A stretch of 32,000 nt of DNA, taken from contig NZ_CP180230.1 of NCBI RefSeq assembly GCF_047555085.1, positions 330,001 to 362,000 on the forward strand, read 5' to 3'. Position 1 is the stretch's first letter, and the number at the start of each line of letters is the position of its first letter. The stretch comes from Candidatus Saccharimonadota bacterium (GTDB lineage Archaea > Nanohalarchaeota > Nanosalinia > Nanosalinales > Nanosalinaceae). This document shows positions 3,497 to 28,879 of this stretch, piece by piece. The translations under genes were made by a program, and so were the position numbers. The notes beneath the pieces are model-generated. The model had not been told where the DNA came from, did not search any database, and worked only from the letters and a program-made list of their open reading frames with translations.

Positions 3497-4678
3497 TCAA
3501 TTTCCAATTATGATTCTTTCTCCTTGAGGCCTGAAAATTGCTCCTGAAAGTATTCGAGGCCTTTCAGCTTCTATAGTTATCGATCCTTTCCAGAGGCCTG
3601 AGATTTTTGTGGAGTTGGCTAGATTGAAGGTGGCCTGTCCATTCAAGGCCTCGAATACGGAGGAAGATTCTGACTGGAAAATCGAGGATACGTTGAAGTT
3701 CTGTCCGCTTACTTCGTGTGTTGAGTTCGAGATGCATTCATTGACTGGGCCTCTTTTGTCGCAGATTGCTAGATCGCTTTTGTATTTTATCAGTACGATT
3801 CCGGAGCCTCCGTTTCCTCCGTTTCCTCCGTCTCCACTGTCTGTTGTTCCTGATCCTCCGCCTCCTCCTGTGTTTGGCATTCCGTTTTCTCCGTTATCGT
3901 TTACTCCTTGCCCTCCGTTTCCTCCGCCTCCAAGGCCTCCGGTTGCCCATTCTGATGGGCTGTAAAGATAGTCTCCTGATGTTGAGGATCCGTCATGTGA
4001 TCCTCCTCCCCCTCCTCCGGCGAAGTATCCGTTTTCTCCGTATTCATCTCCGAAGACGTCTCCAAGGTATATTCCTTGTCCGCCGTCTCCCGGTTTTCCG
4101 CTGGTTCCTGTTGTACCTGTTTCTCCTGGCTCTGTTGCTCCTCCGCCTCCTCCATGATTGTACCAGCTGTTTGACTGTCCGTTTCCTCCGTCATTTACGT
4201 ATCTTGAAAGATTGTCCGAGCTGGCTGTCAGGCCGTTTCCTCCTGTAGTTGTACCTCCTCCACCAGAGCCTCCATCATTTCCCTGTTCTCTTCCACTGTA
4301 TGATCCTCCTCCGCCTCCTCCCAGCGCAGTGATGCTTCCGAATTCTGAGTTTTCTCCATTGTTTCCATCCTGTGCTGTACCTGTTCCGTCACCGTCTCCG
4401 CCTAGGCCTCCAGCTCCGACTGTTATACTGTAGTTATCTTTTGAAATATTGATTGTGCCATAGACTGCTTCTCCTGCACCGCCTCCACCTCCGTGTCTGC
4501 CGGCACCTCCGCCTCCTCCACCTACTACAAGTATAGTTGCTTCATCGACGTTGTCAGGAACGTCCCACGTATGTGTGCCGACTGCTGTAAAGGCCTCTAC
4601 TTTCTCTTCTGCGGAGACAGTGACTGTGAGGGAGAGAACTAGAAAAATCATTAAGAACGCTGCGTATATTTTTCTCAT
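3497..4678 (-). CDS. Secreted glycine-rich protein (ALK-type 'Gly_rich' / polyglycine-II-like domain) with a Cys-containing beta-rich C-terminal domain
   Basis: Sec-type signal peptide MRKIYAAFLMIFLVLSLTVTVSA|EEK. It is followed by FTAVGTHTWDVPDNVDEATILVVGGGGGGAGRHGGGGGAGEAVYG..ITVGAGGLGG..GGGGGGS.., the pattern of the glycine-rich protein family. Runs of 5-6 Gly recur through about 300 aa. The stop lies 2 nt from the tRNA-Ser 3' end. Confidence 0.8.
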   Translation of the reverse strand: MRKIYAAFLMIFLVLSLTVTVSAEEKVEAFTAVGTHTWDVPDNVDEATILVVGGGGGGAGRHGGGGGAGEAVYGTINISKDNYSITVGAGGLGGDGDGTGTAQDGNNGENSEFGSITALGGGGGGSYSGREQGNDGGSGGGGTTTGGNGLTASSDNLSRYVNDGGNGQSNSWYNHGGGGGATEPGETGTTGTSGKPGDGGQGIYLGDVFGDEYGENGYFAGGGGGGSHDGSSTSGDYLYSPSEWATGGLGGGGNGGQGVNDNGENGMPNTGGGGGSGTTDSGDGGNGGNGGSGIVLIKYKSDLAICDKRGPVNECISNSTHEVSGQNFNVSSIFQSESSSVFEALNGQATFNLANSTKISGLWKGSITIEAERPRILSGAIFRPQGERIIIGN

Positions 4679-5788: not shown

Positions 5789-7456
5789 ATGCCAGGATTA
5801 GGAGGACAACCGATTTTTGTTATGTCGGAAGATGCTGAACGTCAAACCGGTGAAGATGCTCAACAGAATAATATTGAGGCCTGTAAGACCGTGGCGAATG
5901 CGGTGCGTACTACTTTAGGCCCGAAAGGTATGGATAAGATGATGGTGGATTCCGTCGGCGATCTTGTTGTTACGAACGACGGAGTTACTATTCTTGATGA
6001 GATGGACTTGGAGCATCCAGCTGCCAAGATGATGGTTGAAGTCGCCGAGACTCAGGAAGAGGAAGTCGGCGATGGAACAACTACAGCTGTAGTCTTGGCT
6101 GGAGAGCTCCTGAAGCAGGCGGAGGATCTCCTTGATCAGGATATCCATCCGACAGTTATTACAAAAGGATACAGACTGGCACGTGAGAAAAGCACTCAGG
6201 TGCTTGAAGATATTTCCGAGGACGTCGATCTTGATGATGAAGATGTTCTTGAGAAAGTTGCGATGACGGCGATGACCGGTAAGTCAGCTGAATCCGCAAG
6301 AGAGTATCTGGCGGAGATCGGTGTCAAGGCCGTTAGACAGGTAGCTGATCAGACTGGCGACAGAATGATTGTTAACAAGGATAATATCAAGCTTGAGAAG
6401 AAAGGCGGTGGCTCTGTAGAGGATACAGAGCTTGTTCAGGGAGTAATCCTTGACAAGGAACGTGTCCAGTCCGGAATGCCTTCGTCAGTCGAGGATGCGA
6501 AGATCGCTCTGCTTGATTCTCCTATCGAAGTCAAGGAGACAAGTACTGATGCCGAGATCAACATCTCCGATCCAAGCCAGATGAAAAACTTTGTAGAACA
6601 GGAGGAAGAACAGCTCAAGGAGATGGTGGAAGCTCTGGATGATGCAGGAGCAAACGTTGTTATCTGCCAGAAAGGCATCGACGACATGGCTCAGCACTAT
6701 CTGGCCAAGAGAGGAATTTTCGCTATCAGAAGAGTTTCAAGCGGAGACATCCAGAAACTTGCCAACGCAACAGGAGCAAACATAATCACAAATATTACAG
6801 GAATAGAGGCCTCTGATCTTGGAGAGGCAGGAACTGTAGAGCAGCAATACATCGGCGGAGAGGCCATGACTTTCGTACAGGACTGTCCAGAGGCCAAGTC
6901 TGTTTCCGTCCTCATCAGAGGAGGAACAGATCACGTAGTCGACGAGATCGAAAGAGCGATGGAAGACGCTATTGGAGCAGTATCCTCAGCCATCCAGCAC
7001 GGTAAAGTAGTCGGTGGGGGAGGAGCAACAGAAGTCGAACTGGCTCAGGATCTCAGAGACTACGCTGACTCAATCGGTGGAAGAGAACAGCTTGCCATCA
7101 ACGCTTTCGCAGATGCACTGGAAGTTATTCCAAGAACACTGGCAGAAAACGCAGGCCACGATCCTATCGACACGCTTGTCGATCTGAGAAACCAGCATGA
7201 TGCCGGAAAGAAGATGGCGGGCATCAACGTTGCCTCAGGTAAATCGGAGGAACTCTACGAACAGGGAGTAGTTGAGCCACGACAGACAAAGACACAGGCA
7301 GTACAGTCTGCTTCCGAATCAGCTGAGATGATTCTGAGGATCGACGATGTCATCGCAGCCAAAGGATTCGACGCCGACGGCGGACAGGGCGGAGGCCCAC
7401 CAGGCGGACCTGGAGGAGGCCCAGGCGGAGGAATGCCTGGCGGCGGCCTGATGTAG
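5789..7456 (+). CDS. ths: Thermosome subunit (group II chaperonin, Cpn60/TCP-1 family)
   Basis: Motifs [35 protein letters not shown] and GGGATE match across the full length. The C-terminal G/P/M-rich tail is [25 protein letters not shown]. Confidence 0.97.
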
Positions 7457-7464
7457 AAAAATTT

Positions 7465-7530
7465 GGAGAGGCCTCAACGCCTCCACATTTTACCTTCATT
7501 TCTTGTTTTCTTGCCTGTTTTTCTTTCAAA
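7465..7530 (+). terminator. Hairpin GGAG(A)GGC/GCCTCC followed by a long T-rich tract
   Basis: Located 9 nt after the thermosome stop. The stem includes an AGGCCT copy. Downstream cattttaccttcatttcttgttttcttgcctgtttttctttc contains several oligo-T runs, the usual archaeal termination signal. Confidence 0.45.
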
Positions 7531-7540
7531 GTTTCCACAG

Positions 7541-7550
7541 ATTATAAATA
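7541..7550 (+). promoter_or_regulatory. Candidate TATA box (ATTATAAATA) for the pilus-like operon
   Basis: About 48 nt upstream of the ATG at 7594. A GAGG at 7577..7580 could serve as an SD element. Confidence 0.35.
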
Positions 7551-7593
7551 GGCCTGAACGTAATTTTCCTTGTAAAGAGGTATTTTCCAGTAT

Positions 7594-8313
7594 ATGGCTA
7601 ATGATGAAGTACAGCTCGGTGATATGGGGGACGATGACTACGAAGTTGTTCCTCTTGGACCTATAAGGAAACTTGAGAGAAGAGTTGAGGATCTTCAGGA
7701 ACAGCAGCAACAGAAAGAGCAGACAGGAGGTTCCGCTAACGAAGAGCTTGTACGTGATATACTGGATATCATGAAGTCGAATCAGAAGATTGTCAACGAT
7801 ATGACAGAGTCGACTCATGAGCTGCGTAACAGTGTAGAGGACTTGACTAATAAGATGGACTCTGTAATTGATAACATGAATTCTTTCATGGATCTTCTTC
7901 AGCAGGCCTCTGAAATGGATATGGAGGGAGAGATTGCTGGGGATCTTGAGCAGCGTGTTGCAGATGCCATTGGAGACAAGATGGATGACATGGTGAGTGA
8001 GGTATCAAAGTCTAATCAGATGATTGCAAATAACTTGGAGGACTTGAATACTCAGATGAGGAAGAATTACTATGCTTCTGAGTCAGGAGGTGGTGTGGCT
8101 AATCAGTCCAGGCCTCAGAACTCCAGGAGAAGACAGCAGTCACAGAATCAGCAGGATCAGGGACAGTCACAGAACTCATCGCAGGGATCCAGAAGACGTG
8201 GTTCAAGCGGTATGGGCCAGCAGTCTGGAGGAAGCAACATGAATATGGGTTCGGATAATTCTAACAGGATGAAAAAGTTGCGAGAGAAATTCGATAAAGG
8301 AAGCGGAGAATGA
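7594..8313 (+). CDS. Hypothetical acidic coiled-coil protein with Q/N/S/R/G-rich low-complexity C-terminus; first gene of the pilus-like cluster
   Basis: No TM segment or signal peptide. The heptad-like helical region runs from LERRVEDLQEQQQQKEQ to NNLEDLNTQMRKN. The tail is NQSRPQNSRRRQQSQNQQDQGQSQNSSQGSRRRGSSGMGQQSGGSNMNMGSDNSN. Its stop overlaps the next ATG (ATGA at 8310..8313). Confidence 0.75.
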   Translation: MANDEVQLGDMGDDDYEVVPLGPIRKLERRVEDLQEQQQQKEQTGGSANEELVRDILDIMKSNQKIVNDMTESTHELRNSVEDLTNKMDSVIDNMNSFMDLLQQASEMDMEGEIAGDLEQRVADAIGDKMDDMVSEVSKSNQMIANNLEDLNTQMRKNYYASESGGGVANQSRPQNSRRRQQSQNQQDQGQSQNSSQGSRRRGSSGMGQQSGGSNMNMGSDNSNRMKKLREKFDKGSGE

Positions 8314-8789
8314 ACAGGAAGGGAGTTACTCCTCTAGTTGGAACTGCATTGCTTATTTTAATCGCTGTGTCTGCCGTTACTTCAGCTGCTGTATTCATAA
8401 GGGATACAACGCAGCAGGTGTCGGACTCGGTTAACGAAAGAATATCTGAAGACGAGATGAGGGAGAACTCCGGTATCGATATCGAATACGCCTATAACAA
8501 CAGTGATGGCAACATATCGCTTGTAGTTAGAAATACAGGCCGCTACACCTTAACAGTTGAGGAGAATAACAACAAATTCTGGAATCTTTACTCTGATGGG
8601 AGGCCTGTAGGATTCACTTATTCTGATGGTTCCGGTGGTCAGAAACTGATTGATCCTGATGCAACTCTGACGCTGCAAACTCAGATAGAGTTCCCGCAAG
8701 GAGATTACACCTCTGTCAATCTTGAAGGCACATACGGCACTTCATCATCGATAATCTGTGATGAATCTGATCCGGACGGAGCCTGTTAG
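8310..8789 (+). CDS. Archaeal type IV pilin-like protein (class III signal peptide, Pilin_N/DUF1628-like N-terminus)
   Basis: MNRKG|VTPLVGTALLILIAVSAVTSAAVFI has a short basic leader, Gly at -1 and then a hydrophobic helix. The protein ends ..ICDESDPDGAC (C-x8-C). Confidence 0.8.
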   Translation: MNRKGVTPLVGTALLILIAVSAVTSAAVFIRDTTQQVSDSVNERISEDEMRENSGIDIEYAYNNSDGNISLVVRNTGRYTLTVEENNNKFWNLYSDGRPVGFTYSDGSGGQKLIDPDATLTLQTQIEFPQGDYTSVNLEGTYGTSSSIICDESDPDGAC

Positions 8790-8873
8790 TGTGTACAAAC
8801 CAACTTTTTCCTATTTGAGGACTCTTGAACTTATTTAAACCAGCGTATCCTATTTTTCTGTACGGGATATTCA

Positions 8874-9407
8874 ATGGAATTATTTGAGCAGAGAAAGGGT
8901 ATTACACCCGTTATTGCGATCGTTCTGCTTCTGATGGTTACAGTTGGAGCTGTGGGTGTTGTATACACACAGTTCAACAGTCTCGTAGGTAATCCAAGTG
9001 ATGAGTTCGAGGATCAGCAGAGAAATCAGGATACAAACATCCGAATTTCTCAGCTACAGACAAACGCTGATCTTCCTGAAAACATCAACAGCTTGGATCA
9101 TACTCCCGCAAATTACGGAAACATCACTATGACACTTCAGAACTCCGGATCAGTTTCGAGGAACACAACTTCGTTTGTGCTCTCGGTATCCGGTGCAGAT
9201 GGAAGCGTCCCAACCAGTGGAGCATACTGCTTCACGGCTGAAGACAGTGTGATTCTTGATCCAGGAGATACCTACGAATGTAACACAGGTATCACTTACC
9301 CACAGGTCACGAACGAAGTAGAGTTCGAGGTCCTTCTAACAGGTTCATCAAAGACCTGGACAGAGACCTGTAGACCTGATGTAACAGGAGCAGAAAGCTG
9401 CGCTTAA
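8874..9407 (+). CDS. Archaeal type IV pilin-like protein (class III signal peptide); candidate major pilin
   Basis: MELFEQRKG|ITPVIAIVLLLMVTVGAVGVVY. It has four Cys, including a terminal C-x9-C (TCRPDVTGAESCA). The gene has its own A/T-rich upstream elements and an oligo-T tract downstream. Confidence 0.8.
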   Translation: MELFEQRKGITPVIAIVLLLMVTVGAVGVVYTQFNSLVGNPSDEFEDQQRNQDTNIRISQLQTNADLPENINSLDHTPANYGNITMTLQNSGSVSRNTTSFVLSVSGADGSVPTSGAYCFTAEDSVILDPGDTYECNTGITYPQVTNEVEFEVLLTGSSKTWTETCRPDVTGAESCA

Positions 9408-9417
9408 AGCAGTTTAT

Positions 9418-9440
9418 CATTTTCTTATTTTTCTTTTCTA
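9418..9440 (+). terminator. Oligo-T termination tract (cattttcttatttttcttttct)
   Basis: Three T4-T5 runs lie within 23 nt, starting 11 nt after the stop at 9407. Confidence 0.4.
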
Positions 9441-9490
9441 TAACTGATTGAAAGTGGAAGAACTTTGCTTTTGAGAGGCCTGTAAGTGAC

Positions 9491-9498
9491 ATTTATAT
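9491..9498 (+). promoter_or_regulatory. Candidate TATA box ATTTATAT for a leaderless transcript starting near the ATG at 9523
   Basis: The centre of the element is about 28 nt upstream of the ATG at 9523, the canonical archaeal TATA-to-TSS spacing. No SD-like element lies between them. Confidence 0.4.
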
Positions 9499-9522
9499 TT
9501 CAGAGTAGGTAATTTGTTGAAT

Positions 9523-10197
9523 ATGCTGTCGAGAAAGGCCCAGATTCAGGCTGTCACAGTTGTTCTACTGACAGGCCTGACTGTAGGTGTTGCCTCCGTA
9601 GTTTATGTATGGGGTGAGCCTATACTTGACAAGAGAGAGTCTCAGGTAGGCCTTGACTCGGTTGAACAGGATGTACTGACTCTTCGGGAAGAGATTTTAC
9701 GTGTCAGTGAGGCAGGTGAAGGAGCGGCTGCTAACGTGGAAATGGACGGCGGTGAAAGCGACTTTGACATTGAGATGATACGTGTGGAGGACAGTATTGA
9801 CTACATAGATATCGTTGTTGATGCTTCGGAGTCCGAGTATCCGGATGGGCGCTGGACTCTGTTGAAAGGAGATAATCAGCGTAACTTATCTATATCGAAT
9901 ACTGGAGACTACGTCCTTGAAGGAGAAGATGAACAGTCGGTACTCCTTGTAAGGCCTCAGTCATCCGTTATAACTTACAGGATAGAGTTCAGGAATATTT
10001 ACTCTGAGAATGCTGAAGGCGCACCGGTGGAGAAGATTGATCTTATTTCACGAGGAGGTGATGTCTCAAGTGGTGGAGCAGAGGTCTACGTAACTAATAC
10101 GGGTACAGAGGTAGATACAGGTGAAGATGGGCTTACATTATCCTCTGGTCAAACCCTTGACAGAAGCCGAACGGAGATAGAAGTTGATCTAAGATGA
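9523..10197 (+). CDS. Pilin-like protein with class III-type N-terminus
   Basis: MLSRKA|QIQAVTVVLLTGLTVGVASVVYVW followed by an acidic extracellular domain. I preferred the ATG at 9523 because the ORF-track start at 9514 is a TTG. Confidence 0.65.
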   Translation: MLSRKAQIQAVTVVLLTGLTVGVASVVYVWGEPILDKRESQVGLDSVEQDVLTLREEILRVSEAGEGAAANVEMDGGESDFDIEMIRVEDSIDYIDIVVDASESEYPDGRWTLLKGDNQRNLSISNTGDYVLEGEDEQSVLLVRPQSSVITYRIEFRNIYSENAEGAPVEKIDLISRGGDVSSGGAEVYVTNTGTEVDTGEDGLTLSSGQTLDRSRTEIEVDLR

Positions 10198-10610
10198 TTA
10201 AAGGGTCTAGAAAAGGACAGTACCTGGCTATTGAGACGGTTCTATCGCTGGGAATCAGTATAGTTGTTGCAACGGCAGTAATAGGTGCTTTCAACAGTTA
10301 CAGGAGCAGTGTTGTTGACGATGTACAGGAAAGGCACATTGACATAATTAATTCGGAGATAATACGAACAGTCTACAATCTGAAGTATATGGACTCGGGA
10401 AGCGGTATCACGCTGGATCTTCCCCAACCACAGACCGGAGAATACACTGTATCGCTTCAGGACTCACAGGTAAGAGTGGATACAGGCAGTGGAGTTGATT
10501 CCCAAGTCATAGATGGAGCTAGATGGGCCTCAGGTTTCAGCGGCTCAACTTCCAGCTCAGAGGTTAAAATCATGAAGCTTGAAAACGAAGTTGTACTGAG
10601 GCCTGGATAG
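10194..10610 (+). CDS. Pilin-like protein (class III signal peptide, RKGQ motif)
   Basis: MIKGSRKG|QYLAIETVLSLGISIVVATAVIGAF. The start overlaps the upstream stop (ATGA). Confidence 0.75.
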   Translation: MIKGSRKGQYLAIETVLSLGISIVVATAVIGAFNSYRSSVVDDVQERHIDIINSEIIRTVYNLKYMDSGSGITLDLPQPQTGEYTVSLQDSQVRVDTGSGVDSQVIDGARWASGFSGSTSSSEVKIMKLENEVVLRPG

Positions 10611-10612
10611 AG

Positions 10613-12310
10613 ATGGGATTCGGTGGACTGGTAGGACGCCTCAGGAAGATAAAGCATCCTGAGTACTACGAAGAAGATGAAGAGGACTCTGAGAAAGCTG
10701 AAGGTGTCAGTCTTCCAGCTCCAGGAGAGTTCAGCGAAGAGATGGTGGAAGAGGCCAAGGACGAGGAGAATCTGACTGATGTTAATATTGCATATCCTCT
10801 GATCCCTCAGGATCCTGATGAAGGGGAAATCGTCTATGCATGGGCACATATCAAATGGGATGAGGAACAGGGAGAGCTTATTTACGAGATAGTGGAGCCT
10901 GAACTTGATGAGGAAACTGCAGAGGCCTATGAGAAGATCGTTGAAATAATGCAGAGAAGTTTTGATGTCAATTTTGAGGATCTTGAATCGGGCAAGGCGA
11001 AGGAGTACCTTGAAGAGAAGATCGACATGATTGTTGACAAGTACAATATCGATGTTCCTGACGATAAAAGAGAGGTAATACGATACTACACGAAAAGGGA
11101 TTTTGCAGGCCTCGGAAAGCTACAGCCACTGATGAACGACACAGAGGTCGAGGATATCTCCTGCGACGGCCTGGATATTCCTGTCTACGCTTATCACAGG
11201 AATCCACGTTTCGGTTCTATCAAGACGAATCTGGTTTGGAGCGAAAAAGAGGAGCTGGACAGCTTCGTCATGAAACTGGCCCAGAGATGTGGAAAATCGA
11301 TTTCTGTTTCCAGTCCATTGCTGGATGGATCCCTGCCAGATGGTTCCCGTGTACAGGCCACTCTGGCAACTGATATCGCAAGGAAGGGATCGAACTTCAC
11401 GATCCGAAGATTTACAGAGGATCCTCTGACACCGATCCACATGATGGATTACGAGACGGAGAACGCCCGTATGATGAGCTATCTTTGGATGCTTGTCGAG
11501 CACGAGAAATCCATACTTGTATCAGGGACTACAGGAGCAGGAAAAACTTCACAGTTGAACGCTCTATCCTTATTTATCAGGCCTGACAAAAAGATCGTTT
11601 CAATCGAGGATACGCCAGAGTTGAGATTGCCTCACGATCACTGGGTGCCGGAAGTTTCACGTTCCGGATTCGGTTCCTCAGCCGAAGAGGGAGGCCAAGT
11701 TACAATGGATAACCTGTTGAAGGAGTCCTTGCGTCAGAGGCCTGAGTACATCATCGTGGGAGAGGTTCGAGGAGCTGAGGCATATATCCTGTTCCAGCAG
11801 ATGGCTACAGGGCACACCGGTCTATCGACGATTCACGCAGATTCGCTTGAGATGCTTATGGATCGTCTGACAACAGAGCCGATTAATCTGTCTCCATCTC
11901 TTATTGAGACTCTGGACTTGATCATGGTCATCGCCAGAATCCGACGTGGAGGAACTTACATCCGAAGGATTATGGGGCTTTTCGAGGTGCGTGGATACGA
12001 CAAGAGGAAAGGTATCGACTCGAATCAGGTGTTTGGATGGGATCCGCAGGATGATAATTACTTCGTTAAGAACAATTCCATGCTTCTGAAAGATATCGCA
12101 GATCAGTCAGGAATGGATTACAAGGATATACAGAAAGAACTGAAAAACCGTCAGCACGTACTGAAATGGATGCAGGAGGAGCAGATCAAGCACTACAGGA
12201 AAGTAGGAGATATTATCAGCCGTTATTACTCGGATCCTCACTCAGTTCTGGAGAAGGTAGGGCAAACATTTAATTCTCAGCAGCCGGAAAACTTGAATAA
12301 TGGAGCTTAA
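10613..12310 (+). CDS. Type II/IV secretion-family ATPase (archaeal FlaI/ArlI/PilB-like, T2SSE domain)
   Basis: Walker A SGTTGAGKTS, Walker B/Asp box EYIIVGEVRGAEA, His box TGHTGLSTIHA. The 565-aa length and acidic N-terminal extension are typical of archaeal pilus/archaellum ATPases. Confidence 0.93.
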   Translation: MGFGGLVGRLRKIKHPEYYEEDEEDSEKAEGVSLPAPGEFSEEMVEEAKDEENLTDVNIAYPLIPQDPDEGEIVYAWAHIKWDEEQGELIYEIVEPELDEETAEAYEKIVEIMQRSFDVNFEDLESGKAKEYLEEKIDMIVDKYNIDVPDDKREVIRYYTKRDFAGLGKLQPLMNDTEVEDISCDGLDIPVYAYHRNPRFGSIKTNLVWSEKEELDSFVMKLAQRCGKSISVSSPLLDGSLPDGSRVQATLATDIARKGSNFTIRRFTEDPLTPIHMMDYETENARMMSYLWMLVEHEKSILVSGTTGAGKTSQLNALSLFIRPDKKIVSIEDTPELRLPHDHWVPEVSRSGFGSSAEEGGQVTMDNLLKESLRQRPEYIIVGEVRGAEAYILFQQMATGHTGLSTIHADSLEMLMDRLTTEPINLSPSLIETLDLIMVIARIRRGGTYIRRIMGLFEVRGYDKRKGIDSNQVFGWDPQDDNYFVKNNSMLLKDIADQSGMDYKDIQKELKNRQHVLKWMQEEQIKHYRKVGDIISRYYSDPHSVLEKVGQTFNSQQPENLNNGA

Positions 12311-13175
12311 ACGCTACGCCGAAATAGCGTATGAACAGTTCGGAGGCCTGGCCCTTGATGTAGTACCCTACTTCCAGGACTTCAACATGACGCTTAACAA
12401 GGCGAATATTAAGCTCTCACTTCCTGAATACATCGCTCTTGCCATAGCATCTGTGTTTCTATCGTTCGGCTTCATGTTCGCAATGTTCGGCACAATATTT
12501 GTCTTGGGATCAGGCCTCTCAGGCCTTGTATCTGCACTGATGCTGTCAATAGTTGTCTCCGGTATCGTGGCAGCTCTGGCATATGTTATACCGCTTCTGA
12601 AGGTTAACAACAGAGCAACTGTAATCCGTGACATGCTTCCTTTCGCAGTAATGTATCTCTCTACACTGGCCGGGACAGGATCATCGATCTCAGAGATGTT
12701 TGAAAATCTTGCAAAAGTAGATGAGTACGGAGAAGTATCTGAAGAGGCCAAAAAAATCCACAGAGATATAGATACTTTTGGAATGGATGTTAACGAGGCC
12801 TTGAGAAGAGGAGCACAGAGAACACCGAGTGAGGACTTCGAGGAACTTCTAAGAGGAATGGAACACATATTAACAACTGGAGGATCCGTAAGAGAGTTCC
12901 TGAGAGAAAGAGCCGCCAAGTTAATGGATGACTACGAGAGAAGAATCGAAAAATTCGCCGATCAGCTAGGCCTCCTCGTTGAAATGTATATTACAATAGT
13001 TGTCGTAGGATCAATAATCTTTACAGCAATGAGCGCCATCATGAGCTCATTCACAGGATTTGCACCTGGCTTTATCGTTGCATTACAGGCCATACTGATT
13101 TTCATAGGCCTTCCGCTGATATCAGGCATGTTTATCCTTTTCATTAAAGGTATAGCACCAGGAGGGATCATGTGA
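12300..13175 (+). CDS. Pilus platform membrane protein, N-terminal half (single T2SSF domain; FlaJ/PilC/TadB-like)
   Basis: TM helices flank a cytoplasmic helical domain (DMLPFAVMYLSTLAGTGSSISEMFENLAK...GGSVREFLRERAAKLMDDYERRIEKFADQLGLLVEMY). The start overlaps the ATPase stop by 11 nt. Confidence 0.85.
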   Translation: MELKRYAEIAYEQFGGLALDVVPYFQDFNMTLNKANIKLSLPEYIALAIASVFLSFGFMFAMFGTIFVLGSGLSGLVSALMLSIVVSGIVAALAYVIPLLKVNNRATVIRDMLPFAVMYLSTLAGTGSSISEMFENLAKVDEYGEVSEEAKKIHRDIDTFGMDVNEALRRGAQRTPSEDFEELLRGMEHILTTGGSVREFLRERAAKLMDDYERRIEKFADQLGLLVEMYITIVVVGSIIFTAMSAIMSSFTGFAPGFIVALQAILIFIGLPLISGMFILFIKGIAPGGIM

Positions 13176-14215
13176 TGGTTGATTTCTTCAAGGAGGACGA
13201 GTACGAGCCAGGATACTCTATCGAAGATAAAGTCGTGCTTGCTTCAGTAGGGGCAGGAGGATTACTCGTTGTTTTAGGTCTTGTAACATTTCTCAGTGTT
13301 TCCCAGCGTTTTGGAGGAATTGTATTGATCATAGGTATACTGACAGGGGTTCTTCCTTATGGTGTTCTATCTTTCCTCAAGAACCGTGCCGTGAAACAGA
13401 TGGAGAAACAGTTCCCTGAATTCCTAAGTGATCTGGCAGAGTCGAAGCGAGGAGGCATGACACTTGTAAGAGCATTTGAATCAGCCACAGACAACGATTA
13501 CGGCCGTATGAACGGAGAGATAGAAAGGATTTACAACGAGTTAAGCTGGGGTATACCGTTTCCGGAAGTCATGGAACGGTTCAACAAGAGGCTGGAGGAT
13601 TCTGCTGTCATCCAGGAGTCCATATCCATCATTATCCAGAGCTTCAAGAGCGGAGGAGACATCACAAAGACAATAGAATCTGTTGCAGACGACGCTGCCC
13701 GACTCAGAAAAGTTATACAGGAGAAAGACGCTCAGCTACAGCAGCAGCTGTTCATCATGTACGTCATCTTCTTCCTCTTCATCGGCATCACTATAGGAAT
13801 ATACACTATGCTTGGCCAATTGTTGGGCCTTGGAACAGCGGAAAGCGGAGCAATAGAAGGAATCAGCGGAGTTATAGGACAGGAATCGGGAGGCCCCACA
13901 AACTTCTGTAACGGCGAAGTACTTGCAGCAGAACCGTTCTGCGCGACGTCAAAAATCTTTGGATTCGTGCCTGCCAACATATCAAGCGGGGAAGTATCTC
14001 TGAGCAGCACATATGCGACCACGTATGCATACGGAAGAATGGCGTACTACAAGGCCTTACTGTTCATAATGCTTATGATACAGGGAATATCAACTGCAGC
14101 AGTTGCAGGACAGATAAAAGAAGGATCTCCAAGCGCAGGCCTCAAGCACGCAATTATAATGCTTCCTATAGCTTTCGTGGCCTATGTATCGTACGTTGGA
14201 GGTGCAGGGATATAG
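13175..14215 (+). CDS. Pilus platform membrane protein, C-terminal half (single T2SSF domain; FlaJ/PilC/TadC-like)
   Basis: QMEKQFPEFLSDLAESKRGGMTLVRAFE...SGGDITKTIESVADDAARLRKVIQEKDAQLQQQLFIMY followed by TM helices. An extracytoplasmic loop carries two Cys (NFCNGEVLAAEPFCATS). The ATG at 13175 shares one nt with the upstream TGA; the ORF-track GTG at 13172 is also possible. Confidence 0.85.
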   Translation: MVDFFKEDEYEPGYSIEDKVVLASVGAGGLLVVLGLVTFLSVSQRFGGIVLIIGILTGVLPYGVLSFLKNRAVKQMEKQFPEFLSDLAESKRGGMTLVRAFESATDNDYGRMNGEIERIYNELSWGIPFPEVMERFNKRLEDSAVIQESISIIIQSFKSGGDITKTIESVADDAARLRKVIQEKDAQLQQQLFIMYVIFFLFIGITIGIYTMLGQLLGLGTAESGAIEGISGVIGQESGGPTNFCNGEVLAAEPFCATSKIFGFVPANISSGEVSLSSTYATTYAYGRMAYYKALLFIMLMIQGISTAAVAGQIKEGSPSAGLKHAIIMLPIAFVAYVSYVGGAGI

Positions 14216-15079
14216 ATGTGGCAGAGGAAAGGCCAGATATCCTTTGAGTTCGTTACTTCAATGCTTTTCGTGATCTTCATACTTGCTTTCATAATATTTA
14301 CAGCGTCTGATCAAGTTCCTGAGATTGAACAGAACAATGAAAGAGCTTCTGTCAATCTAGAGGCCTCGCGTTTGACTTCAATGCTTCTCACTTCTCCAGG
14401 GTATCATTCTCACGGTTCTGGAGGAACAGAATGGGAGAGAGACGCTGACACACTTGAAGATATAGAAGATGTAGGCCTAGCATCGGACTATCACGTTGTG
14501 GAGAGGGACAAAGTGATGAATCTAGGTACTGTCGGCGGAGATGTGCTTAACTACTCCCGTTTCAGAGAGATAACACAGATCTCTAATCAGTACAGGTTTG
14601 TTTTCTCCGCGATGCCTATAGTAGATACTTCAAGCAAGTTTTACAGGACTGAGCCGCCTGAAGATCCGAACATAGTTGAGCCAGAGAACGAAAGATACAT
14701 CAACTCAGGAAACAACGTAGGATACGGCAGTATAGTTATGGGAGGTACAAAATACAACGTCCTGGTAACTTCACATAATGGGAGATATGACACTGCCTAT
14801 ATGGTCAATGATTCAGCACGTGAATGGAATTTTATAGGAGCTGAGAGGTACGGAGAAGGAGATACAATAGAACTAGGTGGAAGAGAGTTTGTTGTCGAAG
14901 GATTCCAGAACAGCGGCGATCAAATAGGGAATATAGTTATCCTGTCGAGAGAGATCAAAACTTTTGGATCCCAGTTCGATGTCGATTCAACTATAACAAA
15001 GATAAGCCGATACGCTGCCTTCAAGCAGCCTGGAGCAGATCTCCAGCCTATGAAGATAGAGGTGTACTCCTGGACATGA
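14216..15079 (+). CDS. Pilin-like protein (class III signal peptide, RKGQ motif, Glu at +5)
   Basis: MWQRKG|QISFEFVTSMLFVIFILAFIIF. The gene starts on the nucleotide after the upstream stop. Confidence 0.75.
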   Translation: MWQRKGQISFEFVTSMLFVIFILAFIIFTASDQVPEIEQNNERASVNLEASRLTSMLLTSPGYHSHGSGGTEWERDADTLEDIEDVGLASDYHVVERDKVMNLGTVGGDVLNYSRFREITQISNQYRFVFSAMPIVDTSSKFYRTEPPEDPNIVEPENERYINSGNNVGYGSIVMGGTKYNVLVTSHNGRYDTAYMVNDSAREWNFIGAERYGEGDTIELGGREFVVEGFQNSGDQIGNIVILSREIKTFGSQFDVDSTITKISRYAAFKQPGADLQPMKIEVYSWT

Positions 15080-16806
15080 TACGAGGCCTCAGGAAGAGAG
15101 CCGGCGCTGGTTACTCTATAGAGGCGATACTGGCAGCTCTGATACTTTTCACCTTCGCCATGAATGCGGTTCAGGTTCCTGACTCTAAAGACTGGTCGGG
15201 GTTACAGAGGGAGATAGCTGCCCGTGATATCAGTTTTGTCCTCAAGGAGACAGGCGATCTTGAAACATTTCTGAAAAACTCTGATACCGGTGCGTTACGC
15301 ACTGCAGCTACCACTTTATCAGATACAGATATCTCTGTTTCCGGGACTGTTGAAAATCTTCCTATAAATGAGATGCGTGTAGGATTCCACAAGATGCCGG
15401 ACAAAATATTCTGGAATCAAACTGTGGAAGTTCAGGCAGATGATTTCTGCTACGGAGATCTGGAGGAAATACAGGACCGTTCAGAAACGGAAATCCGCAG
15501 AACAGCAAACAGCACAGGAACTATGGAAGATAAATACGGTGTCAGACTTTACTTTGCGGATAACGATCCGTCAATCCCCGGAGGCTTCAACGGAGAAACG
15601 GACTACGACAGCATATACGTCGATAACGGCACCAGATGTGTCTTCAGAACAGAGGAAGGGCCTTACTACAACGACGAAATTTTTTACTGGGGAAACAGAA
15701 CCGACGATAGGCCTGGGAACTTCTTCGACTTCAAGAGATACGATAACACTCTTCACAGATTCAACTTTTTCCAGGCCGATAACGCTGTAAGATTCAGAAA
15801 GACACTGGAAAAACCGGTGAACGGTATAAAAACCAGAACCGCAGTAAACACGTTTAACTTTACAACAAGAGGCCTCAAAGATCTTGATATACTTGTTTTC
15901 TCGGAATCAGAAAGTCTGGAGAAAATACAGGAAAACGATCAGAAATTCAAGGAGTTTGCCCGTGAAGGCTCTGCATTATTCCTGATGAATCTAACTCAGA
16001 GCGATATGAACTATGATATAATGCAGGATATAGGATTTGAATGGTTTGACCTACCTTACACAAACAATCCTTCAGAATACGATGAGACTTTCTCTGACTA
16101 CGAGGACTCAGAGGAGATAGAGACTTACTTCAGAGGCCTTGAAGGCGATATCTCGAAAGTATCGATGGGGCCTGGCGGCAAGGTAATATCGGGACAGGCC
16201 TTTACAGCTACTTCGCGTGAAGATCTTCTTTTCGCACGTAACACCGGTTACGATACATCAGATCTTGACGGCGATATACTTTTCGGCGACTCCTGGACAG
16301 AGATAAATACCGGTGAGGCCTGTAGAGATACTCAGACAACTTTCCAGATATACATGGAAGCTTATGAAGTACGCAACATCGATCTTTCCCGGGACAGTGG
16401 CAACTGCGGGCAGATCAGAGGGTTAATGGTGAGAGAAGACGGAGAATGGCGAGGCCCGTTCCTTGAAGATGAGGTGATCAGGATCGACGGCAGAAGGTAC
16501 GTTCCACGTATAGAATCCAGTGGTAGCGCACGCCTTGTATTTGCAGGAAGCAGTAAAGTGGAACTTGTCAATCATAGAGAAGTATTTGAGAATATGACAG
16601 GTCAGAAAATCGCAAGAGCTGCTTACGAGAAAAACTACAGTGATTCAGACAGAGAGCTACTTGCAACTGTCATGTACTGGCTTCGAGGAGATACGGTCCG
16701 TTTCGAGGGCGGTGCTGGCGCCACATCACTTTCGACTACTATCCCTGGCGGTATCAGCGAAAATGTGTACATGCCTTACAAGGTAAAGATGAGGTGGGGC
16801 GGTTGA
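15076..16806 (+). CDS. Large (576 aa) pilin-like protein with class III-type N-terminus; candidate tip/adhesin subunit
   Basis: MIRGLRKRAGAG|YSIEAILAALILFTFAMNAV followed by about 540 aa of acidic, Cys-containing, beta-rich sequence with no family I recognise. ATGA overlap with the upstream gene. Confidence 0.65.
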   Translation: MIRGLRKRAGAGYSIEAILAALILFTFAMNAVQVPDSKDWSGLQREIAARDISFVLKETGDLETFLKNSDTGALRTAATTLSDTDISVSGTVENLPINEMRVGFHKMPDKIFWNQTVEVQADDFCYGDLEEIQDRSETEIRRTANSTGTMEDKYGVRLYFADNDPSIPGGFNGETDYDSIYVDNGTRCVFRTEEGPYYNDEIFYWGNRTDDRPGNFFDFKRYDNTLHRFNFFQADNAVRFRKTLEKPVNGIKTRTAVNTFNFTTRGLKDLDILVFSESESLEKIQENDQKFKEFAREGSALFLMNLTQSDMNYDIMQDIGFEWFDLPYTNNPSEYDETFSDYEDSEEIETYFRGLEGDISKVSMGPGGKVISGQAFTATSREDLLFARNTGYDTSDLDGDILFGDSWTEINTGEACRDTQTTFQIYMEAYEVRNIDLSRDSGNCGQIRGLMVREDGEWRGPFLEDEVIRIDGRRYVPRIESSGSARLVFAGSSKVELVNHREVFENMTGQKIARAAYEKNYSDSDRELLATVMYWLRGDTVRFEGGAGATSLSTTIPGGISENVYMPYKVKMRWGG

Positions 16807-17111
16807 AAGGACAGATGATGATAATAACAGCAGTCATAGTCAGCGTGATGATGGTCTCCGTATCCTCTTCAGTAGCACAGCTGGGCGACAGAGAATATGA
16901 GTACCGTGATGAGGCCTATATTTCCAACATGATACGTGGAGAGGCCTCAGAAGTTGATACACGGTATATGAAGGAACGTCAGAACTTCCAGAAGATGGTT
17001 CACTCCATAGATACCTACACAACTGAAGTAGAGTACTGGAGCGCACAGAACTGTTTCAACGTAACTCTGAGCAACCGCAGATCAGATATAAATCTCCGCT
17101 GCATCAGCTGA
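16794..17111 (+). CDS. Small pilin-like protein (class III signal peptide, KGQ motif)
   Basis: (M)GRLKG|QMMIITAVIVSVMMVSVSSSV. The start is GTG at 16794 or TTG at 16803, and both overlap the upstream stop at 16804..16806. Confidence 0.6.
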   Translation: MGRLKGQMMIITAVIVSVMMVSVSSSVAQLGDREYEYRDEAYISNMIRGEASEVDTRYMKERQNFQKMVHSIDTYTTEVEYWSAQNCFNVTLSNRRSDINLRCIS

Positions 17112-18294
17112 ATTTTTCGATAAGCTCAACTTCATCTTCATCGAATTCAAACTGCTCAATAAGATCTTCATTTTCTTCGATAAGTATTGCAAACAGCGGA
17201 AGACTGTTACGGGCCTCTTTACGTGAAACATGCAGCTTTTCACTCATCTTCGATGTAAGAGACTCCATCCTCTTTCTTGAGGCACGTGAACTACCCAGCT
17301 TCTTGATTTTCGAAGGATACTGGTAACGCGTATAGCCACTGTACTTCTGATCCTTGCTCAAAGCTACACCTACAGTAGAGAACTTGTAAAGATACTTCAA
17401 CAGCTTCCAGTTCTGCCTTCGCCTGATACGGCCATTAAACAGATCAGCCTTGGAAATCCAGTCATAGGCCTCTGCCGTGTCCTTACTGCGTTCATACTCC
17501 CGCGGAATATTTTCTCGCACCCACTGAAGGAAGGTATCCGGATCTTCATCCAGATTGTTCGTAGCATCTTCGGCAGTAGAAGCCGTAGTAGTTTTGAAAA
17601 TTATCTTCAGGGCCTGGAAAATATCCTGCTGGGTATCACGCCCGGATATAGCTTCTAAATCATCTACTTCAAGCTTTTCCTGTCCTGTAGCAGCTGCCTC
17701 GAGATCGTTTATGGCAGAACGCATCTGTCCTCCAGCACTACGTGCAATTCTTTTGACAGCACCGTCTTCATACTCTATGCCTTCTGCATCAAGTATTTCA
17801 CGCAGATGAGCTGCTATAGAGTTCGTATGCACGGAATCAAGCTTTATCAACTTGGCTTTGTTCCTTAAAGTTCTGATACTGTTATCGTAGGCATCATTTG
17901 CTGTCATAACGATAGGGAAACGACTTTCATCTACTATCGTGCTTATCTCTTTAACTCCGCCTCTATCGCTGTTACCGCTCATTCCATCGACTTCATCGAT
18001 AAGTATAATCTTCTGACCGCCGAAGAAAGAGGCCTGACGAGTCGCTTCCTTCAACTCTGTCTTCAACTTCTTCTTTGTACGGACATCCGAAGCATTAGTC
18101 TCAACCAGTTCATAGCCCAATTCATTCGCTAGGGCCTCGACAAGAGAAGTCTTACCTGTACCGGCCTGGCCATGAAGCAGCACTGCTCCGTCGCCCTGTT
18201 CCCAGTCCTCGGCCCACTCCTTCAACTCTTCTTTCTCGTTGGACGCACCACGGTACTCGGAAAGAGTCTCAGGCCTGTATTTTTCTACCCACAT
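17104..18294 (-). CDS. rfcL: Replication factor C large subunit
   Basis: MWVEKYRPETLSEY..LLHGQAGTGKTSLVEALANELGYELVETNASDVR..ILIDEVDGM is the archaeal RfcL pattern. The 396-aa length leaves no room for an intein. Confidence 0.95.
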   Translation of the reverse strand: MWVEKYRPETLSEYRGASNEKEELKEWAEDWEQGDGAVLLHGQAGTGKTSLVEALANELGYELVETNASDVRTKKKLKTELKEATRQASFFGGQKIILIDEVDGMSGNSDRGGVKEISTIVDESRFPIVMTANDAYDNSIRTLRNKAKLIKLDSVHTNSIAAHLREILDAEGIEYEDGAVKRIARSAGGQMRSAINDLEAAATGQEKLEVDDLEAISGRDTQQDIFQALKIIFKTTTASTAEDATNNLDEDPDTFLQWVRENIPREYERSKDTAEAYDWISKADLFNGRIRRRQNWKLLKYLYKFSTVGVALSKDQKYSGYTRYQYPSKIKKLGSSRASRKRMESLTSKMSEKLHVSRKEARNSLPLFAILIEENEDLIEQFEFDEDEVELIEKFS

Positions 18295-24897: not shown

Positions 24898-26544
24898 ATG
24901 CTGGAGCAACAACTTCAGGCCTTGATGCCTGTACTTGAAAACTTCTTCCTGAATCCTGTAGGCCTTCTTGCACTTGCAGCGCTTGTACCACTGCTGATTT
25001 TCTACCTTGCCAGGCCTCAGCCGGAGGAAAGAATGATGCCGTCCATAATGTTTTTCAGACAGCAGGAAGGAGAAAGCAAGCTCAAAAACGCTTTCAGAAC
25101 GCTTCTCAGGAATCTTGTTTTGCTTCTTCATGTGCTTGTGATACTTGCATTTGCTTTCACTCTAGCAGAGCCTTTCGCGGAAGTACCTGAGAGGCCTGAT
25201 GATGCTGTTATTGTTTTGGATAGATCTGCCAGTATGCAGTCGCAGATAAATGATGTAGAGAACTTTGTCGAAGATAATATAGGTGAAAGAAACACTGTTA
25301 TTGCATCAGGAGCTAGAACAGAAGTTATAGCAGAAAATGTTGCAGGAGAGCAGGCGCTGTCGATACTAAGGAATATAGAATACCGGGACACGGAGACAGA
25401 TATTGTTTCGGGCATTCAGACAGCAGGAAACTATCCTGGCGAGCTTGTAGTGGCAAGCGATCTGGATCAGACAGTTGACAGTAGAGATCCTGTACAGGCT
25501 CTGGAGTCATCATCAAAGCCTATAGAACTGATGAAATCAGAGGCCTCAAACGCCTATGCTGTAACTGATCTGAAGGTGAACAGGAATACTACCGAGATAT
25601 CGATAAGGAACTTCCTTTCAGAAACAGAAACTGTTGAAGCAGATTTCAACGGGATGAATCAGGATTTAGAGCTTGATCCAGGCCTCAATATTCATGAAGT
25701 AAGACATAGTTCGGGAAGAAATACTTTCACTCTTCCAGATGACGGTCTGAACGTTGATAATAAGGCCTTTTTTGTTGTCCCGGAGTCCGAATCAGTCGGT
25801 GTAAAGACTGCAAGGACGGACAGATACTTCGAGAAGGCTGTACAGCTTATAGGCGAGACCAGAAATACTGTTCTTGACAGCAACACTGATGTGTTCTATC
25901 TTAACGGTGAGGCCGAAGATCCGGAAACTGTGAGGGAGAAAGTCGATAACGGTGCCTCAGCGATAGTAACATCTGACTCAGAGGCCTTGAAAGATGTATT
26001 TGAGTTTGATACATCAGCCGCCGAGAAAGGAGGCAGCGTGGTGCTTAATTATCCTCGAAGGATCGATATCGGCAGTGTTGTGTATGTTGACAGAGGCCTG
26101 GAAGACGGTGAATCGTTATCGACTCCGGAAGAGGCCGTGAAAATCCACCAGTACGGGAATGGAGAGGTCCTGGCATTCAATGCAGAGATGGTTCAGTTCC
26201 GGAGGAATATTCTGTATCCGATTTTCTGGCGACAGATTATACTGAGGATGTCCGAGACGCAGACTGCAGGTGAGATGAATGTTAGAACAGGAACATCTCT
26301 GGACACAGGAGATTCAACTTTATTTGTATCTAATACAGGATTCTACGAGGAGAACGGGAAAACATATGCCGCCAATCTTCTCTCAGCAGAAGAATCCTCG
26401 CTGAATTCACATTACCAGGAATTTTCAGGTTCTACAGCTGCTGTTACAACAGAGAGAAACATTCAAAATCTTTCAGTATTTATTATAGCCTTACTGCTTG
26501 TCCTGGAACTCATTTACCTCTACAAGATAGGTGAAATAAGATGA
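24898..26544 (+). CDS. BatA-like N-terminal double-TM protein with vWA (MIDAS) domain and C-terminal TM anchor
   Basis: NPVGLLALAALVPLLIFYLARPQPEERMMPSIMFF is the BatA-type N-terminal domain. MIDAS-like VIVLDRSASM. The C-terminal helix is VFIIALLLVLELIYLY. Confidence 0.75.
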   Translation: MLEQQLQALMPVLENFFLNPVGLLALAALVPLLIFYLARPQPEERMMPSIMFFRQQEGESKLKNAFRTLLRNLVLLLHVLVILAFAFTLAEPFAEVPERPDDAVIVLDRSASMQSQINDVENFVEDNIGERNTVIASGARTEVIAENVAGEQALSILRNIEYRDTETDIVSGIQTAGNYPGELVVASDLDQTVDSRDPVQALESSSKPIELMKSEASNAYAVTDLKVNRNTTEISIRNFLSETETVEADFNGMNQDLELDPGLNIHEVRHSSGRNTFTLPDDGLNVDNKAFFVVPESESVGVKTARTDRYFEKAVQLIGETRNTVLDSNTDVFYLNGEAEDPETVREKVDNGASAIVTSDSEALKDVFEFDTSAAEKGGSVVLNYPRRIDIGSVVYVDRGLEDGESLSTPEEAVKIHQYGNGEVLAFNAEMVQFRRNILYPIFWRQIILRMSETQTAGEMNVRTGTSLDTGDSTLFVSNTGFYEENGKTYAANLLSAEESSLNSHYQEFSGSTAAVTTERNIQNLSVFIIALLLVLELIYLYKIGEIR

Positions 26545-28835: not shown

Positions 28836-28849
28836 AAATTTTCCAAACC

Positions 28850-28857
28850 TTTAATTA
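28850..28857 (+). promoter_or_regulatory. Candidate TATA box TTTAATTA for a leaderless transcript
   Basis: Centred about 26 nt upstream of the ATG at 28880. Confidence 0.4.
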
Positions 28858-28879
28858 GCTGGATAGAATAGTAAGTTCT

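Follow-up and report, generated by a model that had tools for sequence, protein, structure and literature searches.

A probable type IV pilus assembly system with seven prepilin-like proteins in the nanohaloarchaeon Candidatus Nanosalina sp. VS9-1, orthologous to DPANN Locus 1

What kind of surface machine is encoded by a cluster of eleven genes, seven of them for prepilin-like proteins, in a member of the DPANN archaea? The cluster occupies positions 7594-17111 of the 32,000-nucleotide (nt) stretch of DNA analysed here (hereafter the window), which comes from Candidatus (Ca.) Nanosalina sp. VS9-1, a nanohaloarchaeon (a halophile had been supposed in the original prediction for this stretch); its g10 and g04 proteins are identical to ACK3SF_02110 and ACK3SF_02080 of that organism. 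For DPANN archaea, life requires contact with a host, by a mechanism that is largely unknown; the locus is one of very few gene sets for surface machines that are conserved across several DPANN phyla, and it has been argued in the literature to be a leading candidate for the contact apparatus. We conclude with good confidence that the cluster is orthologous to the published DPANN Locus 1, and that it encodes an archaeal type IV pilus assembly system, probably related to the euryarchaeal PilB4-type pili of clade 2.

Eleven open reading frames (ORFs), named g01 to g11, were confirmed on the forward strand between 7594 and 17111, where a pilus-like cluster had been predicted. They encode a cytoplasmic coiled-coil protein, seven prepilin-like proteins, a PilB/FlaI-family ATPase and a PilC platform divided between two genes. 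The seven pilin-like proteins are hydrophobic in one segment each, which is N-terminal; the coiled-coil protein g01 and the ATPase g06 have no such segment, and the platform proteins g07 and g08 are polytopic. A FlaFind-like rule ([KR][GA] and then a hydrophobic stretch of 20 residues that holds no more than one charge), applied in all six frames to ORFs of at least 60 amino acids (aa), picks 7 of the 101 such ORFs in the window, and these are exactly the cluster's pilin-like genes, with the N-termini that had been quoted for them; the restriction of prepilin-type N-termini to the cluster is far beyond chance. All seven proteins thus carry a class III signal motif with a cleavage site predicted from sequence.

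The genes for a motor lie between the pilin-like genes. The 565-aa product of g06 (10613-12310, +) matches the secretion ATPase family PF00437 (T2SSE) at 116.3 bits against a cut-off of 24.9, has a PilB3_C match and contains the Walker A motif GTTGAGKTS; we take it for a hexameric secretion ATPase of the PilB/VirB11 family. As had been claimed, the platform is split into two genes with one T2SSF domain (PF00482, cut-off 25.2) each: g07 (12300-13175, +), at 67.9 bits and with about six hydrophobic segments, aligns with positions 5-248 of a 555-position ArlJ model, and g08 (13172-14215, +; GTG start, 4-nt overlap with g07), at 62.8 bits and with about five such segments, aligns with positions 168-393 of a 465-position ArlJ model, so that the two proteins correspond to the N-terminal and C-terminal halves of a PilC/TadC/ArlJ-type platform and match the first and second halves of ArlJ/UpsF models. 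This two-gene platform recurs in nearly all sufficiently long related loci, those of non-halophilic DPANN included, and in clades 1 and 2 it is common to find two tadC genes (Makarova, Koonin & Albers 2016). A secretion ATPase, a platform and class III subunits place the cluster in the type IV filament superfamily. Within it, g06 is nearest to a non-archaellar enzyme, scoring 375 bits against A. fulgidus GspE (2OAP), 255 against S. acidocaldarius FlaI and 144 against CpaF. The labels CpaF and TadC have been used in the literature; nevertheless, the ATPase reaches only 164 bits on the TadA-family model (cut-off 373) and no cluster protein has a Flp-family Pfam match, which does not fit a bacterial-type Tad/Flp pilus.

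Which published system this is follows from its neighbourhood. One genome per species was scanned for related loci, giving 80 loci (L001-L080), and about 40 Nanohaloarchaeota genomes hold all 11 genes in the same order, with a thermosome gene upstream and the gene for the replication factor C (RFC) large subunit downstream (5789-7456, +, and 17104-18294, -, respectively, in the window). Identities to the window are 67-89% for the ATPase, 49-84% for the platform halves and 25-72% for the pilin-like proteins, the spread expected for a machine with exposed subunits. A core of thermosome, coiled-coil protein, one to three KG/ITP-type pilins (the slash marks the predicted cleavage site, here and below), g04-like and g05-like proteins, ATPase and split platform is kept in Aenigmatarchaeota, Undinarchaeota and other DPANN, where the ATPase is about 50% identical; most of 13 such loci have a 150-190-aa KG/QxNIEY protein and then a 410-720-aa KKG/xxHxxE protein at the positions of g09 and g10. 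The thermosome/GroEL gene stands directly 5' of the coiled-coil gene in many Aenigmatarchaeota loci as well, an adjacency of a housekeeping gene to a pilus cluster that is conserved unusually deeply and for no obvious reason. One record, L038 (JBLGBK010000003.1), is titled "MAG: Colwellia polaris" and shows the full nanohaloarchaeal synteny from the thermosome through the pilus genes to RFC, and its ATPase is 80% identical to g06; it is evidently mis-binned or mislabelled.

Flanks, gene order and the synteny across some 40 genomes all agree with Locus 1, one of two conserved type IV pilus-like loci that Hamm et al. (2024; Nat Commun, PMC11291902) described from 569 archaeal genomes in Nanohaloarchaeota, Woesearchaeota, Pacearchaeota, Nanoarchaeota, Aenigmarchaeota and Undinarchaeota. 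As drawn in Fig. 4, Locus 1 consists of GroEL, a coiled-coil protein, FlaF, PilA, CpaF, TadC and a P-loop NTP hydrolase and belongs to cluster-2 DPANN and Undinarchaeota; proteomics of Ca. Nanohaloarchaeum antarcticus detected several of its products, and the authors proposed that it serves in host interaction. The cluster is a copy of this published locus in another species, and the novelty originally seen in it is accordingly lost. Tad-like clusters shared with Undinarchaeota had been reported by Zhao et al. (2022; PMC9563170) with no pilins annotated, and a 2025 study found pilus genes upregulated in Ca. Nanohalococcus occultus and, by scanning electron microscopy, pilus-like connections with host cells (PMC11803251).

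Are the seven pilin-like proteins really subunits? Two N-terminal styles coexist among them, as had been noticed. The PilA-like prepilins g02 (8310-8789, +) and g03 (8874-9407, +) read MNRKG/VTPLV and RKG/ITPVIAIVLLL, with [RS]KG/[VIL][TS]PV and RKG/ITPVIA in their orthologues. The minor-pilin-like proteins are g04 (9523-10197, +; RKA/QIQAV, orthologues KG/QTQAVTAV), g05 (10194-10610, +; RKG/QYLAIE with Glu at +6, orthologues KG/QYLAVE) and g09 (14216-15079, +; RKG/QISFEF with Glu at +5, orthologues KG/QxxxEF), and the small prepilin-like g11 (16794-17111, +; GTG start) reads LKG/QMMII, with KG/QFMxIS in its orthologues. For the large prepilin-like g10 (15076-16806, +; 576 aa) the register RKRAGAG/Y had been proposed; because its orthologues read RKG/xGYxIE, RKRAG/AGYSIE is the likelier one. 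The K-G/hydrophobic motif is kept across some 30-40 orthologues of each gene, and in many of them the leader is reduced to Met-Lys-Gly. Residues K7, G8, Q9 and E14 of g05, Q7 and E11 of g09, and K5 and Q7 of g11 are invariant, and a C-terminal Cys of g11 is conserved.

Beyond their N-termini, g02 and g03 resemble known archaeal pilins. Both pass the archaellin/pilin N-terminal model TIGR02537 (26 and 21.9 bits, cut-off 20), and profiles of their orthologues match the P. calidifontis type IV pilus 8FK7 (5.5e-7 and 8e-9, respectively) as well as Iho670 and Natrinema PilA2, and FlaF/FlaG weakly; g03 also has a weak NCBIfam match to UpsA. The two align with each other at a probability of 99.9 and E=1e-32 in hhalign, and are full-length paralogues that share a C-terminal Cys pair, C150 and C159 of g02 being invariant among its orthologues.

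It could be argued that several of the seven are uncleaved, membrane-anchored periplasmic proteins, S-layer anchors (stator-like, as ArlF/ArlG) or parts of the base, and that the real number of subunits is well under seven. The likeness of g02 to ArlF and ArlG, and of g03 to the soluble domains of FlaG/FlaF, all sub-threshold, speak for this, as do the translational coupling of g02 to the cytoplasmic g01, not to other pilins, and the lack of a peptidase gene linked to the locus. An uncleaved anchor, however, would have no obvious reason to keep an invariant K-G at -2/-1, or Q at +1 with E at +5/+6 as in g05, g09 and g10, which are the hallmarks of class III cleavage; in many orthologues M-K-G is all that is left of the leader; and g02 is related over its full length, Cys pair included, to the pilin g03. 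We consider the anchor reading improbable, and take all seven as predicted type IV pilus subunits.

Since archaella belong to the same superfamily, a reduced or divergent archaellum, that is, a rotary motility filament minus ArlH and canonical archaellins, has to be weighed too. Among NCBIfam models, ArlI fits the ATPase best (405 bits, cut-off 550) and ArlJ the platform halves (117 against 550), and g02, which others have annotated as FlaF, matches ArlF (29.8 against 110; E=5.6e-7) and ArlG (19.3 against 110). There are faint ArlX/FlaX matches for g01, and the order coiled-coil, F-like, G-like and later I and J echoes the crenarchaeal operon order arlX-arlG-arlF-arlH-arlI-arlJ. Archaella have also been stated for Nanohaloarchaeota in some papers (PMC9563170, PMC11803251). 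Every one of the models nevertheless stays under its curated cut-off, and the minor-pilin families of the cluster are those of haloarchaeal pilus operons (see below). A Pfam scan that covered 27 of the approximately 31 non-nested window ORFs of at least 100 aa gave no match to KaiC/ArlH, archaellin, ArlC/D/E or Peptidase_A24 families; on the archaellin family PF01917, g02 reaches 15.4 bits (cut-off 29.5; E=0.025) and the other cluster proteins give no match. ArlX is found for 4 of 55 g01 orthologues (best E=0.0018) amid generic coiled-coil families, which we take as coiled-coil noise, and g01 lacks the transmembrane (TM) anchor that ArlX has. We therefore rejected the ArlX/FlaX identity of g01, and likewise the archaellar identity of the ATPase and of g02, with their scores under the cut-offs and the ATPase nearer to A. 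fulgidus GspE than to FlaI. Seven components are listed as obligatory for the archaellum (Makarova 2016), and an archaellum is a very remote prospect here. The earlier statement that archaellum and peptidase components are absent stands, within the scanned ORFs of the window, for ArlH, archaellin and A24 peptidase, and has to be softened for g02 and the ATPase, with their sub-threshold ArlF and ArlI matches.

The type IV pilus reading leaves a large set of smaller pilin-like proteins to be placed, and these are best recognised through their orthologues. Pfam assigns DUF7289 to 29 of 49 g04 orthologues (best E=4e-9), DUF7266 to 27 of 34 g05 orthologues (1.1e-8) and DUF7287 to 9 of 32 g09 orthologues (9e-6), whereas for g11 there is a weak DUF7261 match in 2 of 26 orthologues only; of the window's own proteins, g04 and g09 have no Pfam family and g05 a sub-threshold DUF7266 match only. 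It had been said that most of the components belong to no family that can be named; this holds for g01, g10 and g11, and does not hold for g04, g05 and g09 with their DUF families or for g02 and g03 with TIGR02537. The g04 family reaches Aenigmatarchaeota, and its AlphaFold2 (AF2) model (predicted local distance difference test, pLDDT, 79.6; predicted template modelling score 0.72) has an N-terminal helix of some 60 residues (3-64) followed by a beta-sandwich, a predicted architecture of the classic pilin type. Searches of PDB sequences with orthologue profiles of g04, g05, g09, g10 and g11 all came back empty. As a separate observation, orthologues of g11 in six loci (L005, L006, L027, L033, L038 and L039) are of a long form, about 290-313 aa, with a C-terminal extension, while the protein of the window and most others have about 105 aa.

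The largest subunit, g10, has no Pfam or PDB sequence relatives, and its relatives amount to 113 cluster representatives among 1.84 billion; a homologue search with the alignment of its orthologues returned 32 proteins, the same set as the first search. Its AF2 model (pLDDT 62.7) is confident, counted in blocks of 10 residues, over two cores that span about 101-320 and 401-490, and four Cys are conserved among orthologues. In three orthologues the position of window residue 334, within the poorly modelled stretch 323-394, is followed by a Gly-rich insert of some 250 aa. These long forms, of 828-859 aa as against about 580 aa, are encoded at L008:14442-16928, L014:4654-7233 and L037:14468-16993, and their inserts consist of GGxGG and GGSVxI repeats, perhaps forming a beta-helix. 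The inserts have no Pfam match and no similarity to the Gly_rich_2 protein of the window, a 393-aa protein (3497-4678, -) with a Sec-type signal and a PF21722 match at 1.5e-28 that is probably a surface protein and unrelated to them. A variable exposed module would fit a role at the tip, and we regard g10 as the best candidate for a tip adhesin.

The position of the coiled-coil protein is contested. The gene g01 (7594-8313, +) corresponds to the coiled-coil protein of DPANN Locus 1, which has been likened to the viral sigma-1 attachment fibre (PMC11291902). Its product ends in an N/Q/S/G/R-rich tail, has generic coiled-coil Pfam matches only, and shows neither TM segments nor an export signal, while the motif DDYExxPxGPxRxLExR at its N-terminus is kept without change from Nanohaloarchaeota to Aenigmatarchaeota. 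Because it has no export signal or TM segment, and has this invariant N-terminal peptide, we take it for an accessory of the motor in the cytoplasm and not for an extracellular fibre.

How the genes are spaced suggests which filament protein is the major pilin. The cluster had been described as one tightly coupled block with overlaps of up to 11 nt. Six junctions do overlap, four of them, g01/g02 included, by 4 nt (ATGA or GTGA), g06/g07 by 11 nt and g10/g11, the largest, by 13 nt; in addition, g05 and g06 are 2 nt apart and g08 and g09 abut directly. The block is nevertheless broken around g03, which is set apart by gaps of 84 nt on its 5' side and 115 nt on its 3' side (9408-9522), the latter presuming that g04 starts at the ATG at 9523 (NCBI protein ACK3SF_02080) and not at the TTG at 9514. 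The same pattern is seen across about 35 loci compared for spacers and promoters, where spacers occur only at g02-g03 (median 48 nt) and g03-g04 (median 62 nt) and the other junctions overlap or nearly abut. TATA-like elements lie 5' of g01, g03 and g04. The region upstream of the cluster (7457-7593) contains a hairpin and T-tract after the thermosome gene and, further on, about 45-52 nt 5' of the g01 ATG, the TATA-like box TTATAAATA; 34 of 35 loci have a TATA-like element at -41 to -55, and we infer the function of these elements from the sequence. In the g03-g04 spacer, a T-rich tract is followed by the TATA-like box TTTATA at -31 of the g04 ATG, and at -30/-31 in most loci, a distance that implies a leaderless g04-g11 transcript. 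Tracts of five or more T follow the g03 stop in 22 of 37 loci, compared with 1 of 35 for the g02 stop and 2 of 40 for a coding control, and the tract in the window is a putative g03 terminator. There appear, then, to be three transcription units, with g03 alone in its own. Since g03 is set apart in this way, has a nearly invariant N-terminal helix and is represented in the non-halophilic DPANN genome of L043 (7281-8631) by three tandem g03-like pilins (MRKG/ITP[VL]IAMILLIL) in place of g02 and g03, it is the likely major pilin.

From these parts we infer how the system may work. The seven prepilins would insert into the membrane, and an A24 prepilin peptidase, unlinked and encoded elsewhere in the genome, would remove their short K-G leaders. 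Hexameric g06 would drive a platform heterodimer of g07 and g08, in place of the usual two-domain PilC, which would lift pilins from the membrane into a helical filament. The major subunit would be g03, transcribed alone and sometimes tandemly duplicated, with g02 as a second PilA-like subunit; g04, g05, g09, g10 and g11 would be minor pilins of low abundance, for priming assembly and capping the filament, among which the large and variable g10 would be the best candidate for the adhesin at its tip; and g01 would serve as a cytoplasmic coiled-coil accessory of the motor. The likeliest role of such a filament is probably contact with, or adhesion to, the haloarchaeal host, and host attachment by a pilus is a plausible hypothesis that has been proposed before. 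Going further, one could imagine an ancestral host-contact organelle of cluster-2 DPANN, in which the g10 tip with its insertion hotspot sets host specificity, g01 and the ArlF-like g02, a translationally coupled pair, form a stator-like anchor and the whole is a living intermediate between adhesive type IV pili and archaella, but this we regard as a long shot.

A different use of the same parts would be a pseudopilus, a short dynamic filament that imports DNA or nutrients, be it from the host or from the surroundings, or that secretes or displays proteins, as in competence, type II secretion or the Sulfolobus bindosome. One or two major and five minor pilins with an ATPase and a platform amount to a layout like that of ComG or of type II secretion systems (T2SS), DNA import via pili has been proposed for Nanohaloarchaeota and Undinarchaeota (PMC9563170), and g06 scores 205 bits against the bindosome model BasE. 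That score is far under its cut-off, as is the one for BasF; neither the cluster nor the scanned window ORFs hold a ComEC/ComEA-like or other DNA-channel or DNA-binding gene or a substrate-binding protein with a class III signal; and the connections seen in a related species are pilus-like (PMC11803251). No feature of the gene content speaks specifically for uptake or secretion, and we consider a dedicated pseudopilus unlikely, while an uptake role would be compatible with adhesion.

Several points tell against the reading of the cluster as a host-contact pilus. A filament has not yet been tied to the locus in any DPANN archaeon in the literature. No prepilin peptidase was found among the scanned ORFs of the window or next to the cluster in the 80 loci, and a scan of the window and these loci for multi-TM ORFs with a GxGD motif returned almost only g08-type platform proteins, so that cleavage is a prediction; TadV has been reported in some Nanohaloarchaeota (PMC9563170), A24 peptidases occur in most archaea with such ATPases (Makarova 2016), and the literature gave one relevant mention of a nanohaloarchaeal A24 peptidase. 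The division into major and minor pilins is drawn from operon structure and analogy, g10 and g11 lack a family, confidence in the g10 model is partial, and neither the g04 nor the g10 model has a significant Foldseek match in the PDB. The product of g01 is read in two ways, as an attachment-like extracellular fibre by Hamm et al. and as cytoplasmic by us.

Elsewhere in the window, two regions may be mentioned. At 24898-29698 (+), the gene of a 548-aa BatA/VWA protein overlaps that of a 764-aa protein that is hydrophobic at both ends and has no family, and 3' of the latter is encoded a 272-aa N/G/S/Q-rich low-complexity protein, similar in composition to the tail of g01. At 30771-31430 (+) is the gene of a 219-aa Laminin_G_3 (concanavalin-like lectin) protein, which has no class III-like N-terminus by the FlaFind-like rule; LamG proteins are often discussed as factors of DPANN host interaction.

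What is added here to the published locus is the conservation of the prepilin motifs across orthologues, the apparent three transcription units with g03 alone in one, and the insertion hotspot in g10. Together these make up a parts list: seven prepilin-like subunits with predicted cleavage sites, among them g03 as the likely major pilin and g10 as the candidate tip adhesin, and a probably cytoplasmic g01.

Compared with Locus 1 as first described, the cluster has the same flanks, order and taxonomic range (Nanohaloarchaeota, Aenigmatarchaeota and Undinarchaeota), the P-loop NTPase being the RFC large subunit in the window. The only filament proteins that Hamm et al. name are FlaF and PilA, whereas we find five further prepilin-like genes, of which three have Pfam DUF families; in addition, no export signal is seen here in the coiled-coil protein that they compare to a sigma-1-like fibre. 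The archaellum shares with the cluster the superfamily and the best NCBIfam models of the ATPase, platform and g02 (ArlI, ArlJ and ArlF, all sub-cut-off), and differs in ArlH, archaellins and ArlC/D/E/X, which were not found in the DPANN cluster. With the bacterial minor-pilin/PilY1 tip complexes of type IV pili and the GspH-K proteins of the T2SS there is no detected similarity of sequence or fold, and homology would be confined at most to the N-terminal helix; by analogy, the set-up is the same, several pilin-like proteins with Glu at about +5 and one large non-canonical subunit. Such minor-pilin sets prime assembly and sit at the tip in bacteria.

Among experimentally characterised archaeal pili, the Haloferax volcanii PilA1-6/PilB3-PilC3 adhesion pili (filament structure 8FJ5) have major pilins of the Pilin_N type, G/[VI][TS]P[VL][IV], like g02 and g03, and the PilB3_C domain also found in g06; these pili mediate surface adhesion (cited in Makarova 2016). 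In Haloferax, though, the pilins are encoded in trans, the pilB3 locus having no pilin genes (Makarova 2016), whereas the DPANN locus carries its pilins in cis, and the Haloferax system has a single-gene PilC, no coiled-coil partner and no five linked minor pilins.

A counterpart was found on haloarchaeal plasmids, where tblastn with the ATPase returned homologues at about 41% identity. An operon on the Halobaculum halophilum plasmid NZ_CP058531 (L082) comprises a Pilin_N pilin, a hypothetical protein, a 990-aa ATPase, a 680-aa PilC and DUF7287, DUF7288, DUF7261, DUF7266 and DUF7289 proteins; its long ATPase and dedicated pilin set point to a euryarchaeal PilB4-type system of clade 2 (Makarova 2016, Fig. 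4B), a type that is itself functionally uncharacterised. Both systems combine a VirB11-family ATPase and a TadC/PilC platform with a PilA-like pilin and further pilin-like proteins in a dedicated set. In that set, DUF7287, DUF7266 and DUF7289 correspond to g09, g05 and g04 through the orthologue sets, the window's own proteins staying under the cut-offs, and the g04 and g05 profiles match the corresponding ORFs of the plasmid operon; DUF7261 is matched weakly. The g04 profile also matches hypothetical proteins that adjoin haloarchaeal pilus operons (L082:16535-18025, -, at 1.3e-7; L081:17422-18240, +, at 1.5e-5), which suggests further minor-pilin paralogues near these operons. The order after the platform is the same, DUF7287, a larger protein and a DUF7261-like protein, with the 576-aa g10 in the slot of DUF7288. 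No DUF7288 match was detected for g10 orthologues; in hhalign comparisons of g10, g11 and g09 profiles with single haloarchaeal DUF7288, DUF7261 and DUF7287 proteins, the N-terminal helices only aligned, so that the likeness of g10 to DUF7288 lies in that helix only. The DPANN locus differs in having the DUF7289 and DUF7266 genes 5' of the ATPase gene, an added coiled-coil gene, a split platform and an ATPase of standard length (565 aa) in place of the haloarchaeal form of about 990 aa. It is, as judged from these sequences, a rearranged relative of the haloarchaeal L082-type system, and the shared DUF families would link it to PilB4-type operons in hosts that are genetically tractable.

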